Shown one piece after another: positions 690 through 17,978 of a DNA stretch of 35,326 nt. This DNA is from a virus (lineage: Duplodnaviria > Heunggongvirae > Uroviricota > Caudoviricetes). The notes under the pieces were generated by a model that was not told the origin of the DNA, ran no database searches, and saw only the letters and a list, made by a program, of their open reading frames with translations. The position numbers and the translations under genes were made by a program. Each line of letters opens with the position of its first letter. Position 1 is the stretch's first letter. The stretch lies in IMG/VR virus record IMGVR_UViG_2778261588_000004, positions 1 through 35,326 of that record. One strand, given 5' to 3'.

Positions 690-3241
690 CGTCCACCTCC
701 GGAGAACAGACCACCATCGCGCATCTGCCCGGTCACAACATCCATTGCCGCCTTACGGGCTACGTCATAAACAGCCTTCAGCGCCTGTGGCCCTATCTGC
801 CCGTTCGTGCCGTCGTTGTTAATCACCACATGGTTATTCTGCTCAAACGTCCCGGACGCCTGCGACCGGCTGTCTGCCATGCTGCCCGGTGTACCGACAT
901 AACCGCCGGTGGCATAGCCGCGCATCAGCCGGTAAAGATTCCCCACGCCAATCCGGCTGGTTGCCTCCTTCGTGAAGACAAACTCACCACGGTGAACAAT
1001 CCCCGCTGGCTCATATTTGCCGCCGGTTCCCGTAAACCCTCCGGTTGCAAAATGGAATTTCGCCGCAGCGGCCTGAATGGCTGTACCGCCTGACGCGGAC
1101 GCGCCGCCACCAACAGCCCCGCCAATGGCGCTGCCGATACTCCCGACAATCCCCACCATTGCCTGCTTAAGCAGAATTTCTGTCATCATGGACAGCACGG
1201 AACGGGTGAAGCTGCGCCAGTTCTGCTCACTGCCGGTCAGCATCGCCGCCATATTCTGTGCAATACCATCAAAGGTCTGCGTGGCAGCACTTTTAACCTG
1301 CGACATACTGTCCGTGGCGCTCTCTTCCCACTCACTCCAGCCGGACTTCAGGCCTGCCATCCAGCTCCCGCGAAGCTGGTCTTCAGCCGCCCAGGTCTTT
1401 TTCTGCTCTGACATGACGTTATTCAGCGCCAGCGGATTATCGCCATACTGTTCCTTCAGGCGCTGTTCCGTGGCTTCCCGCGCTGCCTGCCGGTCAGTCA
1501 GCCCCCGTTTTTTTGCATCAATGGCGGCCCGTTTTGCCCGTTGTTGCTGTGCGAACTTATCCGCCTGCTGCGCCAGCGCGTTCAGGTGCTCCTGATAGGT
1601 GACCTTGTCGCCAAGTACAGCCAGCTGGCGTTTGTACTCCAGCGTCTCGTCTTTATGCGCCAGCAGGGATTTCTCCTGTGCGGACAGCTGGCGACGTTGT
1701 GCCGCCTCCTCCAGTACCGCGAACTGACTTTCTGCCTTCCACAAATCCCGGCGCTGCTGGCTGATTTTCTCATTCGCTCCGGCATGCTTCTCCAGCGTCC
1801 GGAGTTCTGCCTGAAGCGTCAGCAGGGCAGCATGAGCACTGTCTTCCTGACGATCGCCCGCAGACACCTTCACGCCTTTCGGCTTTTTCAGCGTCGCTTC
1901 ATAGTCCTTTTTCGCCGCCGCCATCAGCGTGTTGTAATCTGCCTGCAGAATTTTCCCGTCCTTCAGTGCCTTGTTCAGTTCTTCCTGACGGGCGGTATAT
2001 TTCTCCAGCGGCGTCTGCAGCCGTTCGTAAGCCTTCTGCGCCTCTTCGGTATATTTCAGCCGTGACGCTTCGGTATCGCTCTGCTGCTGCGCATTTTTGT
2101 CCTGTTGACTCTGCTGCTCAGCCTTCTTTCGGGCGGCTTCAAGCGCAAGACGGGCCTTTTCACGATCATCCCAGTAACGCGCCCGCGCTTCATCGTTAAC
2201 AAAATAATCATCCTTGCGCAGATTCCAGATGTCGTCTGCTTTCTTAAACGCAGCCTCTGCCTTAATCAGCATCTCCTGAGCGGTATCAGGACGACCAATA
2301 TCCAGCACCGCATCCCACATGGATTTGAATGCCCGTGCTGTCCTGTCTGCCCAGGTTTCCAGCGTGCCCATGTTCTCTTTCAGGCGTCGGGTCTGGTCAT
2401 CAAACCCTTTCGTTGCGGCCTCGTTCGCCGCCTGCAATGCCCCGGCTTCATCGCCGGAACGCTGCAACTGAGCAACATACGCAATCTGCTCCGCCGTCAC
2501 GTTATGGAACTGGCGTGCCATCGCCGTCAGCCCCGACGTCGGGTCTGTGGTCAGCTTCCCGAAGGCTTCAGCGACCTTGTCCACCTCCACGCCGGATGCA
2601 GAGGAGAAACGCGCCACACTCTGGCTGATGGACGCAATCTGAGCCTCACCGCTTACCCCCGCCTTAACCAGTGCGCTGAGTGACTCGCTGGTCTGGTTAA
2701 ACGTCAGCCCTGCCGCCTGCCCGGCTCTGGACAGGACCAGCATACGATCTGCCGTCAGTCCCGCCTGATTGCCGGAAAGGACCAGCGTTTTGTTGAAATC
2801 GGACAGGGTTGAGTTGCCCTGATACCAGGCATACGCCAGCGCTCCGGTCGCCACCGCCAGCGAGGTGGCCCCCACCATCGGCAGGGTGATCGCACCGGCA
2901 AGCCCCCGGAACATGGGGATCATCCCGCCGAAGGAGTCCTTCACCTGCCCCCCCTGTTGCAGCAGGATCAGCCACGGACTTTGCCCGCCTGCAAGCTGCG
3001 TGGCCACGTCAGTGAACTGCGCAGGCAGCATACGCATGGCGGCTTTATACTGCCCGACGGAAATTCCCGCTTTCTGTGCAGCCAGCGCCTGCCGGTTCAT
3101 CGACTGTTCAACGACTGCCGCTGTTTTTTTCGCATCACTTTCCGTACCGGAAAAATGACGCCTGACTCTGGCCATCTGCTCGTCAAATCTGGCCGCATCC
3201 AGACTCAAATCAACGACCAGATCGCCTACCGGTTCAGCCAT
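686..3241 (-). CDS. H: Tail tape measure protein
   Basis: 851-aa ORF, Ala/Gln-rich coiled-coil middle, Gly-rich C-terminal region; AGGAGG 8 nt upstream of ATG; lambda H-like position and length. Confidence 0.92.
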   Translation of the reverse strand: MAEPVGDLVVDLSLDAARFDEQMARVRRHFSGTESDAKKTAAVVEQSMNRQALAAQKAGISVGQYKAAMRMLPAQFTDVATQLAGGQSPWLILLQQGGQVKDSFGGMIPMFRGLAGAITLPMVGATSLAVATGALAYAWYQGNSTLSDFNKTLVLSGNQAGLTADRMLVLSRAGQAAGLTFNQTSESLSALVKAGVSGEAQIASISQSVARFSSASGVEVDKVAEAFGKLTTDPTSGLTAMARQFHNVTAEQIAYVAQLQRSGDEAGALQAANEAATKGFDDQTRRLKENMGTLETWADRTARAFKSMWDAVLDIGRPDTAQEMLIKAEAAFKKADDIWNLRKDDYFVNDEARARYWDDREKARLALEAARKKAEQQSQQDKNAQQQSDTEASRLKYTEEAQKAYERLQTPLEKYTARQEELNKALKDGKILQADYNTLMAAAKKDYEATLKKPKGVKVSAGDRQEDSAHAALLTLQAELRTLEKHAGANEKISQQRRDLWKAESQFAVLEEAAQRRQLSAQEKSLLAHKDETLEYKRQLAVLGDKVTYQEHLNALAQQADKFAQQQRAKRAAIDAKKRGLTDRQAAREATEQRLKEQYGDNPLALNNVMSEQKKTWAAEDQLRGSWMAGLKSGWSEWEESATDSMSQVKSAATQTFDGIAQNMAAMLTGSEQNWRSFTRSVLSMMTEILLKQAMVGIVGSIGSAIGGAVGGGASASGGTAIQAAAAKFHFATGGFTGTGGKYEPAGIVHRGEFVFTKEATSRIGVGNLYRLMRGYATGGYVGTPGSMADSRSQASGTFEQNNHVVINNDGTNGQIGPQALKAVYDVARKAAMDVVTGQMRDGGLFSGGGR

Positions 3242-5817: not shown

Positions 5818-6171
5818 TCAGCGGCGACGGTTAACGGCAGGCGGTACGCCACGCCCAAGCCAGAGATGACAGCTTCCGCCATCATCCGGCGAAATCCGGT
5901 CCACCCAGAAGTTTTCCTCGCCGATGGTCAGCGTGTCTCCACGCCGCAGCTGCCGCACCTCATCAGTCCGGACAAACAGGGACGGGCTGGAGCCTTCAAC
6001 GCGCACCCCCTGTCCGGCATAGCTGATATTTTCAGGGTCATCAAAAACACCACGTATCACAGCACCGGACAGCTCACCGGATGTCATGGTGGCTGACGTT
6101 CCCATGTACCCGCGTATCGTTTCATCGGCGCGGGCAATGGCAGCATCGAACAGGTTATCGGAATCAGCCAC
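5818..6171 (-). CDS. FII: Head-tail joining protein FII
   Basis: 117-aa ORF MADSDNLFDAAIARADETIRGYMG..., lambda FII-like. Confidence 0.9.
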   Translation of the reverse strand: MADSDNLFDAAIARADETIRGYMGTSATMTSGELSGAVIRGVFDDPENISYAGQGVRVEGSSPSLFVRTDEVRQLRRGDTLTIGEENFWVDRISPDDGGSCHLWLGRGVPPAVNRRR

Positions 6172-6182
6172 AGCGCCTCCCG

Positions 6183-6578
6183 TTATTGCATTCTGGCCAG
6201 GCCATGTTCTGTCATTTCGGCTGCCACACCGGCAGAGACACGAAACGCCGTTCCCGGCAGCACAAATGCCACAGGCTCATCCCGCGTGGCGTGAAGTGCA
6301 TCAGTATGCAGCGTCACCAGTGCCACGACCGTGACCAGAGCAGCCGTATCAATCACGGTATCCGGCTGCGCTGATACCACCTCATTTTCATGTCCGGTCA
6401 GCGCATTTTCCGGGCTGACAGATGTGTCCTGACCGGCAGCGTCATCCGTGTCATCAAGCTCCTCTTCCAGCTCTGCCACACGGAGCACCAGTTCTTCTTT
6501 CGTCCCCGTCAGGCTGACATCACGGTTCAGTTGCTCACCCAGCACCTGAAGACGGGCAATCAGTTCATCTTTCGTCAT
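6183..6578 (-). CDS. FI: DNA packaging protein FI
   Basis: Lambda FI N-terminus MTKDELIARL begins at the internal Met at 6578; the track ORF extends 13 codons upstream. Confidence 0.85.
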   Translation of the reverse strand: MTKDELIARLQVLGEQLNRDVSLTGTKEELVLRVAELEEELDDTDDAAGQDTSVSPENALTGHENEVVSAQPDTVIDTAALVTVVALVTLHTDALHATRDEPVAFVLPGTAFRVSAGVAAEMTEHGLARMQ

Positions 6579-15515: not shown

Positions 15516-15809
15516 ATGAAAAAAATGCTACTCGCTACTGCGCTGGCCCTGCTTATTACAGGATGTGCTCAACAGACGTTTACTGTTCAAAACAAACAGA
15601 CAGCAGTAGCACCAAAGGAAACCATCACCCATCATTTCTTCGTTTCTGGAATTGGGCAGAAGAAAACTGTCGATGCAGCCAAAATTTGTGGCGGCGCAGA
15701 AAATGTTGTTAAAACAGAAACCCAGCAAACATTCGTAAATGGATTGCTCGGTTTTATTACTTTAGGCATTTATACTCCGCTGGAAGCGCGTGTGTATTGC
15801 TCAAAATAA
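15516..15809 (+). CDS. bor: Bor lipoprotein (serum-resistance lipoprotein of lambdoid prophages)
   Basis: 97-aa ORF MKKMLLATALALLITGCAQQTF... with lipobox LITGC; opposite orientation to the lysis genes, as bor is in lambda. Confidence 0.92.
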   Translation: MKKMLLATALALLITGCAQQTFTVQNKQTAVAPKETITHHFFVSGIGQKKTVDAAKICGGAENVVKTETQQTFVNGLLGFITLGIYTPLEARVYCSK

Positions 15810-15840: not shown

Positions 15841-16320
15841 CTATCTGCACTGCTCATTAATATACTTCTGGGTTCCTTCCAGTTGTTTTTGCATAGTGAT
15901 CAGCCTCTCTCTGAGGGTGAAATAATCCCGTTCAGCGGTGTCTGCCAGTCGGGGGGAGGCTGCATTATCCACGCCGGAGGCCGTGGTGGCTTCACGCACT
16001 GACTGACAGACTGCTTTGATGTGCAACCGACGACGACCAGCGGCAACATCATCACGCAGAGCATCATTTTCAGCTTTCGCATCAGCTAACTCCTTCGTGT
16101 ATTTTGCATCGAGCGCAGCAACATCACGCTGACGCATCTGCATGTCAGTAATTGCCGCGTTCGCTAGCTTCAGTTCTCTGGCATTTTTGTCGCGCTGGGC
16201 TTTGTAGGTAATGGCGTTATCACGGTAATGATTAACAGCCCAAGACAGGCAGACGATGATGCAGATAACCAGAGCGGAGATAATCGCGGCTACTCTTCTC
16301 ACTGATCTATCCCCCAACAA
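15841..16320 (-). CDS. Rz: Spanin inner-membrane subunit Rz (i-spanin)
   Basis: Lambda Rz-like from [39 protein letters not shown]... to ...KYINEQCR; N-terminal TM helix; start uncertain and overlaps the endolysin end. Confidence 0.85.
15900..16082 (-). CDS. Rz1: Spanin outer-membrane lipoprotein Rz1 (o-spanin), embedded in Rz
   Basis: 60-aa [27 protein letters not shown]... with lipobox VVGC and Pro-rich tail, wholly inside Rz in another frame. Confidence 0.85.
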
Positions 16321-16832: not shown

Positions 16833-16937
16833 GGATATTTATCAGGATTTATCGGTTTCTGAACCCTGGATATGTTTATCTGTCCCGGCCTGTTGAATCA
16901 GGCAAGGAATAGTTAAATACAATAGAGAGGATTGTTT

Positions 16938-17210
16938 ATGGACAATAGCACCATTTCTCTACAGGAGTTGCTCGACTGCATTTCCAAGCTTCGGGATGAT
17001 GTAAATGCCCTTACTGTCGCATTTTCATATCTGGCATTCTCAATTCCCAAGGAACAAATGCAACCAACACTGGCATCGCTCCAGCTTGAATCAATCAATT
17101 CCAAATGGTCCCAGCAACAACAAAATTCTTTCAAGTGGCTAGCGGTATTACTGGAGGAAAAATATGCTGGTGAAATTACCATTTCGGCGGAGTCTTCAGT
17201 GAACCAGTAA
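16938..17210 (+). CDS. Hypothetical small protein (90 aa), convergent with the neighbouring minus-strand ORF
   Basis: ATG at 16938 with AGAGAGG 7 nt upstream; AT-rich; overlaps the 3' end of the 17176..17520 ORF by 35 nt; no family recognised. A minus-strand ORF (16913..17245) covers the same DNA, so strand is unresolved. Confidence 0.35.
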   Translation: MDNSTISLQELLDCISKLRDDVNALTVAFSYLAFSIPKEQMQPTLASLQLESINSKWSQQQQNSFKWLAVLLEEKYAGEITISAESSVNQ

Positions 17211-17520
17211 TTCTTCCCGGCAGTTTTCCTTTGTAGGTTATCCACACACTCTGCGCCTCTAAAATTATGGGGCGCTTTTCCGGCGACTGCTCATCCCCTC
17301 CACATAACCCGGCAGCAACATCCAGGAAGACCTGTCTGATGCTCCTTCTGGCTGCTGCCTCATAAAACTCCAGCGCGGCACCTTCAACACGGTCCAGCGA
17401 GATGTCCAGGTCAAAAATTTCACCGTCAAAGCGTTCTTTGTCCTGTAATGCTAAAGTTACCGTAACTTTATTCTCAAAATTGCGGATCCCTTTCACAATC
17501 ATTTCATAGTTTTGGACCAT
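17176..17520 (-). CDS. Hypothetical protein (114 aa) between holin and endolysin
   Basis: Starts 5 nt after the holin stop with GAGGAG upstream; same position as ydfR between essQ and rrrQ in the Qin prophage, but homology to YdfR/DUF1327 is not verified. Confidence 0.5.
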   Translation of the reverse strand: MVQNYEMIVKGIRNFENKVTVTLALQDKERFDGEIFDLDISLDRVEGAALEFYEAAARRSIRQVFLDVAAGLCGGDEQSPEKRPIILEAQSVWITYKGKLPGRITGSLKTPPKW

Positions 17521-17524
17521 TATA

Positions 17525-17740
17525 TTACTCTCCTCTCGCAGCCTTTCTTCTGTCTTCTCTGATTTTGAAGTACAGATTCGTCAGATAAGTCAGAAAGCCC
17601 AGAACCAGACTTCCCAGTACACCAATCGCAGCCCACTGAGACGGACTAACCTGATCAAGCCATTGTAAAAACCAGTAGCCAGCACTGCCTGCGGAGGTGC
17701 CGTAGGCAATGCCTGTTGATATTTTTTCCATCTGATACAT
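17525..17740 (-). CDS. S: Class II holin (phage 21 S21 / EssD-type pinholin), dual-start
   Basis: Two Met codons three codons apart ([30 protein letters not shown]...), two TM segments, charged C-terminus [13 protein letters not shown]; 71 aa from the first Met; the track ORF extends upstream. Confidence 0.85.
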
Positions 17741-17849
17741 ATCCCGCCCCAACAGACCTGTGCTACCGGAAAGAAAAAAGGCCATCAGCAAAACTCTGAT
17801 GGCCTGAATCACCTTTACCAGTCATGTATGAAAAAATACGCACAATCAA

Positions 17850-17978
17850 TTGACAATAATTATCATTTTCATTAAAAATACCGCGTAACATTCTTATTTC
17901 ATGAAGAACCATACCCGCCAGCAACCTGAGTAGCAAAAGCTGTTCATCCCCCATATTTTTGCTGGCGGGTTCTTTTTT
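17850..17978 (+). ncRNA. Candidate small RNA unit: sigma70-like promoter plus intrinsic terminator, antisense to the late leader
   Basis: Perfect -35 TTGACA (17850..17855), 17-18 nt spacer, A/T-rich -10 (TAAAAA/AAAAAT ~17873..17879); hairpin ACCCGCCAGCAA (17913..17924) / TTGCTGGCGGGT (17959..17970) then TCTTTTTT (17971..17978); no ORF with an RBS inside. Confidence 0.3.

Follow-up and report, generated by a model that had tools for sequence, protein, structure and literature searches.

A convergent 90-residue gene of the phrog_2411 family, lying between ydfR and the endolysin gene of a lambdoid lysis cassette, is probably an accessory gene of moron type

What are the two small genes of opposite orientation that separate the pinholin gene from the endolysin gene in some lambdoid prophages, and do they act together on lysis? 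This question is raised by a 35,326-nt stretch of DNA from a tailed virus (Caudoviricetes; IMG/VR record IMGVR_UViG_2778261588_000004, positions 1 to 35,326), which is read as an E. coli prophage and is referred to here as the window. The original prediction, made from the sequence, had described a gap of about 690 bp between pinholin and SAR endolysin that accommodates a 114-aa minus-strand ORF with a good ribosome-binding site and a 90-aa plus-strand ORF with a ribosome-binding site of its own, the two ORFs converging and overlapping at their 3' ends. We found this layout to be accurate: the interval between the two lysis genes is 692 bp long (16833..17524), the 114-aa ORF is preceded by a GGAG located in the 3' end of the holin gene, the 90-aa ORF follows a GAGG, and the 35-nt overlap consists of the last 11 codons and the stop of each gene (see the table). 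Between the stop of the minus-strand ORF and the endolysin gene, 343 nt are devoid of a minus-strand gene and hold the 90-aa plus-strand ORF. The latter had also been called AT-rich, a description that holds insofar as the G+C content of the region (41-43%, resembling that of bor) is lower than that of the adjoining lysis genes (~50%), the difference being only moderate.

Table. Features of the lysis region in the window (positions are those of the window).
Feature	Positions	Strand	Basis or remark
bor	15516..15809	+	classical lambda moron, 1.1 kb away in the same window
Rz/Rz1 ORFs	15841..16320 and 15900..16082	-	lambdoid cassette on the minus strand
SAR-type endolysin (lysozyme) gene, RrrQ type, 177 aa	16299..16832	-	PF00959, E 2e-24
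Spacer, endolysin ATG to 90-aa gene	16833..16923		alignments and PWM scan
110-aa antisense ORF shadowing the 90-aa gene	16913..17245	-	judged to be no gene
Ribosome-binding region of the 90-aa gene	16924..16937	+	GAGG at 16927-16930, 7 nt before the ATG
90-aa gene, phrog_2411 family, convergent with ydfR	16938 (ATG)..17210 (stop)	+	phrog_2411, E 1.2e-57
Convergent 3' overlap of ydfR and the 90-aa gene, 35 nt	17176..17210	both	ORF coordinates
ydfR, 114 aa, DUF1327	17176..17520	-	PF07041, E 1.9e-42; phrog_406, E 6.5e-66
Class II holin (S21-type pinholin) gene	17525..17740	-	PF04971 Phage_holin_2_1, E 2.6e-35

The flanking genes have the composition of a phage 21-type cassette, with a class II holin of the S21 family, a lysozyme with a predicted SAR-like hydrophobic N-terminus and, thereafter, Rz/Rz1. 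The pinholin is the 71-aa form starting with MYQMEK (a mechanical ORF listing extends it to 17812 by way of an upstream GTG) and is annotated by PGAP as 'class II holin family protein' in a 100%-identical locus (L005), while the endolysin is labelled 'lysozyme' or rrrQ by PGAP in homologous loci. Alignments of the spacer that separates the endolysin ATG from the 90-aa gene revealed that its first ~55 nt are nearly invariant. Read on the late strand, this invariant part is the leader of the endolysin gene, which is AU-rich, lacks a Shine-Dalgarno (SD) sequence and contains the 9-nt unit TTTATCAGG twice.

A gene in this slot is known from the Qin prophage (ydfR), and the homology search for DUF1327/YdfR that had been proposed for the 114-aa ORF was positive. 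The match to PF07041 scores 143.9 bits (cut-off 25) and spans model positions 1-92 of 93, and PGAP names the gene 'YdfR family protein' in strain FDAARGOS_1058, at a locus that is 100% identical. Matches to ydfR are present in 3759 of 5426 complete E. coli genomes. As in the Qin prophage of K-12, ydfR sits on the same strand between the class II holin and lysozyme genes of a lambdoid late operon. Its ATG lies 4 nt past the holin stop and its SD sequence is within the holin gene, which places ydfR on the late transcript, probably with translational coupling to the pinholin gene. The order of class II holin, ydfR, RrrQ-type lysozyme and Rz-type spanin is shared with K-12 Qin (essQ-ydfR-rrrQ-rzpQ), but in Qin the ydfR gene encodes 103 aa and overlaps the start of rrrQ in a tightly packed arrangement that has no plus-strand ORF, whereas here YdfR carries a different 41-residue tail and 343 nt with a convergent gene precede the lysozyme gene. 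On the basis of these matches, the 114-aa ORF is best described as a plain YdfR/DUF1327 protein and a regular member of Qin-type lysis cassettes.

The relationship to K-12 YdfR is concentrated in the N-terminal core (residues 1-73), which is 81% identical to that of the Qin protein. By contrast, residues 74-112 form a tail, SPEKRPIILEAQ.VWITYKGKLPGRITGSLKTPP, that is unlike the K-12 sequence; it is strongly conserved among the aligned 114-, 116- and 183-residue forms, while the 104-residue form has another tail. An AF2 model of the protein comprises a beta3-alpha fold plus a low-confidence tail. In a 2026 study (PMC13232886), two-hybrid and pull-down assays mapped an interaction of K-12 YdfR with the N-terminal, catalytic half of RNase E to YdfR residues 1-72; RNA co-purified with the protein, and its overproduction changed the transcriptome little. 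Toxicity of overproduced YdfR was not reported, whereas overproduction of YegJ arrested growth in that study. We found no other functional information on YdfR. In view of the 81% identity over residues 1-73, the YdfR of the window is most likely cytoplasmic and in contact with the catalytic half of RNase E, with RNA binding a further possibility. Thus placed by homology, ydfR is most likely an accessory late function that lies outside the holin-endolysin-spanin machinery.

For the convergent ORF, the prior question is whether it is a gene at all. Neither ORF had been recognised in the original prediction, yet PGAP annotates each of them and each has a PHROG family. The 90-aa protein matches phrog_2411 over its full length (1-90/90) and is the RefSeq/PGAP hypothetical protein WP_044866936.1, an identical protein being annotated in FDAARGOS_1058; close variants are WP_000370546.1 in BL21-AI and WP_000369850.1 in EC958 and NCTC86. 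All of these belong to the same family, and we noted no difference that would set the protein of the window apart from them. For a selection test we used nine distinct copies that differ at up to 47 of 273 positions, excluding the part that overlaps ydfR from the codon-position counts. The frame is open in all nine copies, variable sites are distributed 28/18/48 over codon positions 1/2/3 and dN/dS is 0.27. Moreover, every E. coli and E. albertii copy retains the SD-ATG sequence GAGGATT(A/G)TTTATG, and AAGGA and AAGGAG are found at the matching position in the Citrobacter and Serratia homologues.

Might the 90-aa ORF instead have arisen by chance in a spacer that is not translated, and been propagated by annotation pipelines? 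Such a reading can appeal to the absence of a Pfam or NCBIfam family for the protein, to promoter searches that gave none convincing, to the occurrence of frameshifted copies and to the fact that the antisense frame has a similarly low apparent dN/dS of 0.24. The frameshifted copies occur at low frequency (a few per cent of clusters) and are in keeping with a dispensable accessory gene carried by prophages in decay. The low ratio of the antisense frame is to be expected, as this frame shares third positions with the 90-aa ORF. The antisense ORF itself, a 110-aa minus-strand ORF whose overlap with the 90-aa frame had been correctly pointed out beforehand, contains stops in six of the nine homologous loci and has no Pfam or PHROG match, and we rejected it as a gene. 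Set against the chance-ORF reading are the 90-aa frame that stays open in 9/9 copies despite their divergence, the conserved SD sequence and the 26-62%-identical homologues with a shared motif in other genera, on plasmids and at chromosomal loci. We accord it a negligible probability and regard it as essentially excluded by the comparative data, which argue that the 90-aa ORF is a genuine gene. The original prediction had named two outcomes that together would speak against it, namely that the 114-aa ORF is a plain YdfR homologue and that evidence for translation of the plus-strand ORF is wanting; the first is what we observed, whereas on the second point the comparative evidence for translation is good.

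To delineate the family, we conducted an exhaustive profile search of 1.84 billion representatives and a second, word-indexed search. Together they yielded homologues (26-62% identity) in the Enterobacterales only, with the shared motif L..L...N.L..AFSYLAFS...E....T..AL.FES; the Citrobacter, plasmid-type and Serratia homologues also match phrog_2411, and the gene is represented by 63 protein clusters. The gene is present in 1221 of the 5426 complete E. coli genomes (about a fifth), including BL21-AI and the ST131 strain EC958. Prophage copies in E. coli, Shigella and E. albertii are 74-97% identical and almost always arranged as S-ydfR-(gene)-R. In phiSTEC1575-Stx2k, however, the S-ydfR-(gene) unit is followed by a different holin/holin/M15-peptidase cassette; in metagenome-derived loci (L012-14) the 90-aa gene is intact and ydfR is reduced to a remnant of ~90 nt; and the prophage copy of Citrobacter freundii, which is 62% identical, has a different holin-lysozyme pair downstream of it. 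Outside of prophages, the family is borne on IncF plasmids, with a member on 76 PLSDB plasmids, 70 of which are conjugative; on the plasmid examined the copy is 54-60% identical and solitary, downstream of genes for an Aah-like heptosyltransferase and an AIDA-like autotransporter. Serratia marcescens and Chimaeribacter possess a chromosomal homologue (33-40% identity) at position X of the locus rne ... pyrC-dinI-X-bssS-solA, co-directional with its neighbours and situated after the dinI terminator, and Sodalis ligni has one at another chromosomal site. On the basis of its occurrence in these varied contexts, we conclude that the phrog_2411 gene appears to work independently of ydfR and of lysis cassettes.

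This distribution bears directly on the idea that ydfR and the 90-aa gene form a functional convergent pair, be it toxin/antitoxin-like or a regulator and its target acting on lysis, with the overlap coupling their expression. Short convergent overlaps do recur (35 nt in E. coli, 32 nt in E. albertii, 14 nt in Citrobacter and 20 nt in the locus L030), the Citrobacter (63 aa) and L030 (62 aa) partners of the family are homologous to each other (E 7e-7), and they have an ITGSL-like motif at the C-terminus in common with the YdfR tail (E 0.005). It is the recurrence of the convergent overlap that keeps the probability of a pair above zero. On the other hand, either gene is frequently encountered without its neighbour: ydfR occurs in 3759 genomes and the 90-aa gene in 1221, such that ydfR lacks this companion in roughly 2500 genomes, and conversely the 90-aa family is solitary on the 76 plasmids and in the Serratia/Chimaeribacter chromosomes and persists intact beside the ydfR remnant. 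Neither protein has a match among the PADLOC models (E up to 1) or the toxin and antitoxin families of Pfam, the overproduction of K-12 YdfR is not reported as toxic (PMC13232886), and three unrelated small ORFs fill the same position in other prophages. Type II toxin-antitoxin systems likewise consist of two small adjacent genes on a mobile element, but their genes are co-directional, co-transcribed and co-occurring, whereas those considered here are convergent, occur independently and match no toxin-antitoxin or defence model. The suggestion of a convergent toxin/antitoxin-like or lysis-timing pair was therefore not upheld, and we consider a functional pair improbable.

The three other small ORFs draw attention to the junction itself. 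Alignment of insert-bearing and insert-less alleles showed that they share both flanks, with homology breaking ~25 nt after the endolysin ATG and just inside the 3' end of ydfR. The 35-nt overlap sequence is also present in insert-less ydfR copies (phage 611R1), indicating that the 90-aa ORF ends within ydfR-derived sequence. K-12 Qin and phage 611R1 have no insert at the junction: in the former ydfR overlaps rrrQ, and in the latter the gap measures 63 nt. In other prophages it is occupied by a convergent ORF of 79 aa (JA0257; phrog_21218; 103 E. coli genomes), of 86 aa (PhiR5_1, and unannotated in PhiR63_1; phrog_2572; 314 E. coli genomes) or of 104 aa (gp06 of Stx2 phage 86; phrog_1853; 90 E. 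coli genomes). None of these three proteins could be aligned with phrog_2411 by BLASTP, and the hhalign probability was below 1%; the same comparisons dismissed a superfamily common to all four slot proteins that an L..L....LP.EE pattern, discerned by eye, had suggested. Two further assignments were discarded, namely the 'DUF1823' label that the 86-aa protein bears in PhiR5_1 (E 0.023, failing the cut-off) and an IraP-like anti-adapter for the 79-aa protein (E 0.091 only). Judged from these alignments, the ydfR-endolysin junction is a hot spot that appears to have taken up four or more unrelated small genes, every one of them convergent. This recurrent opposite-strand orientation is also that of bor.

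The same orientation invites an explanation at the RNA level, in which the key product is a plus-strand transcript that is antisense to the spacer, ydfR and the holin gene and damps leaky or late expression of the lysis genes by interference or duplex formation. Any convergent ORF in the slot would serve equally under such a scheme. It accords with the uniform convergent orientation of four unrelated ORFs at this junction, with the lack of room for terminators between the converging genes (nothing terminator-like was detected on the plus strand from 17210 to ~17700) and with the position of the endolysin gene on the late mRNA, 343 nt from the ydfR stop and behind the SD-less AU-rich leader. 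However, the 90-aa ORF is under protein-level purifying selection and its family also lives in non-phage contexts that offer no antisense target, no promoter was identified and many functional phages have no insert at the junction. On these grounds a primary function of the RNA is unlikely, and the protein-level selection together with the life of the family outside phages suggests that an antisense RNA effect is at most additional. A more elaborate version holds that the junction is a dedicated regulatory slot in which the mRNA of the insert, fully complementary to the untranslated 343-nt spacer, would act together with YdfR, as a late protein that binds RNase E and possibly RNA, to govern how stable the holin and endolysin mRNAs are and in what ratio they occur, and hence the timing of lysis. 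We deem this very unlikely; if true, it would amount to an RNA-level lysis clock, which has not been described for lambdoid phages.

We then considered what the 90-aa protein itself might be. An AF2 model built from an 18-sequence alignment is a three-helix bundle (helices 8-34, 38-52 and 59-77; mean pLDDT 78) with a disordered C-terminus, and inspection of the sequence revealed no obvious signal peptide or membrane-spanning segment, so that the model predicts a small, soluble, cytoplasmic three-helix protein. A Foldseek comparison of the model with the PDB gave no match at E < 1, profile and sequence searches against the PDB found nothing, and there was no Pfam, NCBIfam, PADLOC or PDB-sequence match. 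Searches of the literature returned no function or publication for the family, and no expression data for the gene were located. The neighbours of the family (in Serratia dinI and bssS, on plasmids an adhesin operon) offer a hint through guilt by association that the protein may be a small regulatory or connector protein.

Signals for expression of the gene were sought on both of its sides. A consensus scan disclosed no sigma-70 site in the spacer (16833..16923), and the best PWM promoter match, TTGAAT-19 nt-TACAAT, is weak and ends 14 nt before the ATG, leaving almost no leader; it is the sole promoter-like match for the gene and lies in the part of the spacer beyond the nearly invariant ~55 nt. 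No intrinsic terminator was found after the gene. A hairpin at 17253-17281 was rejected as its terminator: it is unspecific, being present in all examined ydfR variants except that of K-12, and in long ydfR forms its equivalent is located ~550 nt from the small ORF. LexA-type regulation, an idea prompted by the dinI neighbourhood, was likewise set aside, as inspection by eye of the upstream region, both in the window and in Serratia, turned up no CTGT-N8-ACAG box other than the one that belongs to dinI. An Rfam scan of the region returned only a sub-threshold match to SgrS, on the late-leader terminator. From orientation alone, we infer that transcription of the 90-aa gene does not depend on the late promoter and probably takes place in the lysogen.

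On balance, we favour the view that the interval probably combines two unrelated accessory genes: ydfR, a gene of the late operon whose product probably acts on RNase E or RNA, and a moron-type small gene at a hot spot. The 90-aa gene would be a self-contained moron (a term defined by Juhala and Hendrix and used in PMC2629481) that inserted at the recombination hot spot in the orientation opposite to the late operon, an orientation shared by bor further downstream. Its product would act as a small protein-binding regulator to the benefit of the host or the prophage rather than of lysis, and the 35-nt overlap would be a by-product of tight packing. Presence or absence at one junction among syntenic relatives, which is characteristic of morons, is what we observed for the gene. 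Like the lambdoid morons bor and lom of lambda, it is small and present or absent at one junction of a syntenic late operon, has a lower G+C content, lies on the opposite strand (as does bor in the same window) and has homologues outside phages. Unlike classical morons, which have a recognisable promoter and terminator, it yielded none that is convincing, it ends inside ydfR and no lysogenic-conversion phenotype is known for it.

Three observations fit less readily with a moron. First, the promoter and terminator searches gave nothing convincing. Second, members of the 90-aa family are convergent and overlapping with a minus-strand ORF in three diverged phage lineages, and these partner ORFs end in a similar C-terminal motif, (K/R)(I/L)TG(S/D); the recurrence of a partner with this ending hints at some linkage with the 90-aa family. 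Third, a small proportion of the copies is frameshifted.

In sum, the convergent 90-aa ORF is, by all comparative indications, genuine, widespread and already annotated, and it does not point to a novel regulator of lysis or a novel toxin-antitoxin system. Since the two genes are frequent and have been annotated before, the finding is for the most part ordinary. Nevertheless, it brings into view an uncharacterised, Pfam-less family of predicted three-helix proteins that moves among chromosomes (dinI-X-bssS in Serratia), IncF plasmids and prophages, and the presence of the gene in BL21 makes it easy to study. For ydfR, the recent link between YdfR and RNase E raises the question of what role an RNase E-binding protein plays in a lysis operon.

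Upstream of the convergent plus-strand gene that encodes the 90-residue small protein, the inverted repeat CCTGTT-N13-AACAGG lies roughly 30-55 nt 5' of the ATG in four related loci (L006, L009, L012 and L015), and a degenerate version occurs in the window. The repeat overlaps the sole promoter-like match of the gene and may act as an operator or as an RNA stem.

A 9-nt unit, TTTATCAGG (late strand: CCTGATAAA), is located directly 5' of the endolysin ATG, with a copy number that ranges from one in related locus L012 to two in the window and three in E. albertii. No recognisable Shine-Dalgarno sequence precedes the endolysin gene, only this AU-rich leader, which is kept even when a different gene lies behind it, as in phiSTEC1575-Stx2k.

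Two hairpins lie in or near the late genes. Within ydfR we observed GCGCCTC-N9-GGGGCGC followed by TTTTCC, and these stems are present in every examined ydfR variant except that of K-12, being kept in the JA0257 gene despite a different loop length and different encoded residues. Upstream of the pinholin gene, a strong terminator-like hairpin of 10 bp is followed by a T-run. An Rfam SgrS match overlaps it at a sub-threshold score (24.8 bits versus the 37-bit gathering score). Instead of being related to SgrS, this hairpin is probably the tR'-type terminator in the leader of the late promoter.

Coordinates of features in the window and in related loci
Feature	Locus	Coordinates	Strand
Degenerate inverted repeat	window	16889-16913	
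9-nt units of endolysin leader	window	16836-16856	
ydfR internal hairpin	window	17253-17281	+
Terminator-like hairpin	window	17805..17779 (within 17774-17870)	-
ParD-like/ParE-like pair	L012	1089-1623	
IraM-type gene	L003 (phiSTEC1575-Stx2k)	2677-3000	
Insertion-sequence interruption	L016	3201-4429	
Plasmid-branch small-protein loci	L034 (IncF plasmid)	2517-2786	
	L035 (IncF plasmid)	5989-6267	
Chromosomal homologue neighbourhoods (Serratia, Chimaeribacter)	L024	4631-5737	
	L028	3056-4250	

The small-protein family also occurs outside phages. On the IncF plasmids its gene sits in very AT-rich DNA, immediately 3' of genes for an Aah-like autotransporter heptosyltransferase and an AIDA-like autotransporter (~1600 aa). 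In Serratia and Chimaeribacter the conserved site is the dinI-bssS interval, near rne and pyrC, and the neighbouring dinI has a clear LexA box upstream. The corresponding region of E. coli K-12 contains both dinI and bssS; our searches found no chromosomal E. coli homologue of the small gene.

Further genes lie beside related lysis cassettes. A ParD-like/ParE-like toxin-antitoxin pair lies 3' of the endolysin gene in L012, at the usual place of Rz/Rz1, and phiSTEC1575-Stx2k carries an IraM-type anti-adapter gene between stx2 and the holin gene which, like the plus-strand gene, is an accessory gene near the lysis cassette on the strand opposite the late operon.

In some assemblies the holin and YdfR are encoded as a single fusion protein of 152-187 aa that contains both PF04971 and PF07041 (P0134, P0140, P0164 and P0216). 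Only 4 nt separate the two genes, and the fusions may reflect read-through mutations, errors in sequencing or artefacts of gene calling. In some strains the cassette is broken by insertion sequences (H32, which is strain PM4; related locus L016). IS1A lies inside the cassette region, and a member of the IS3 family separates ydfR from the holin gene; such interrupted cassettes are consistent with decaying prophages.
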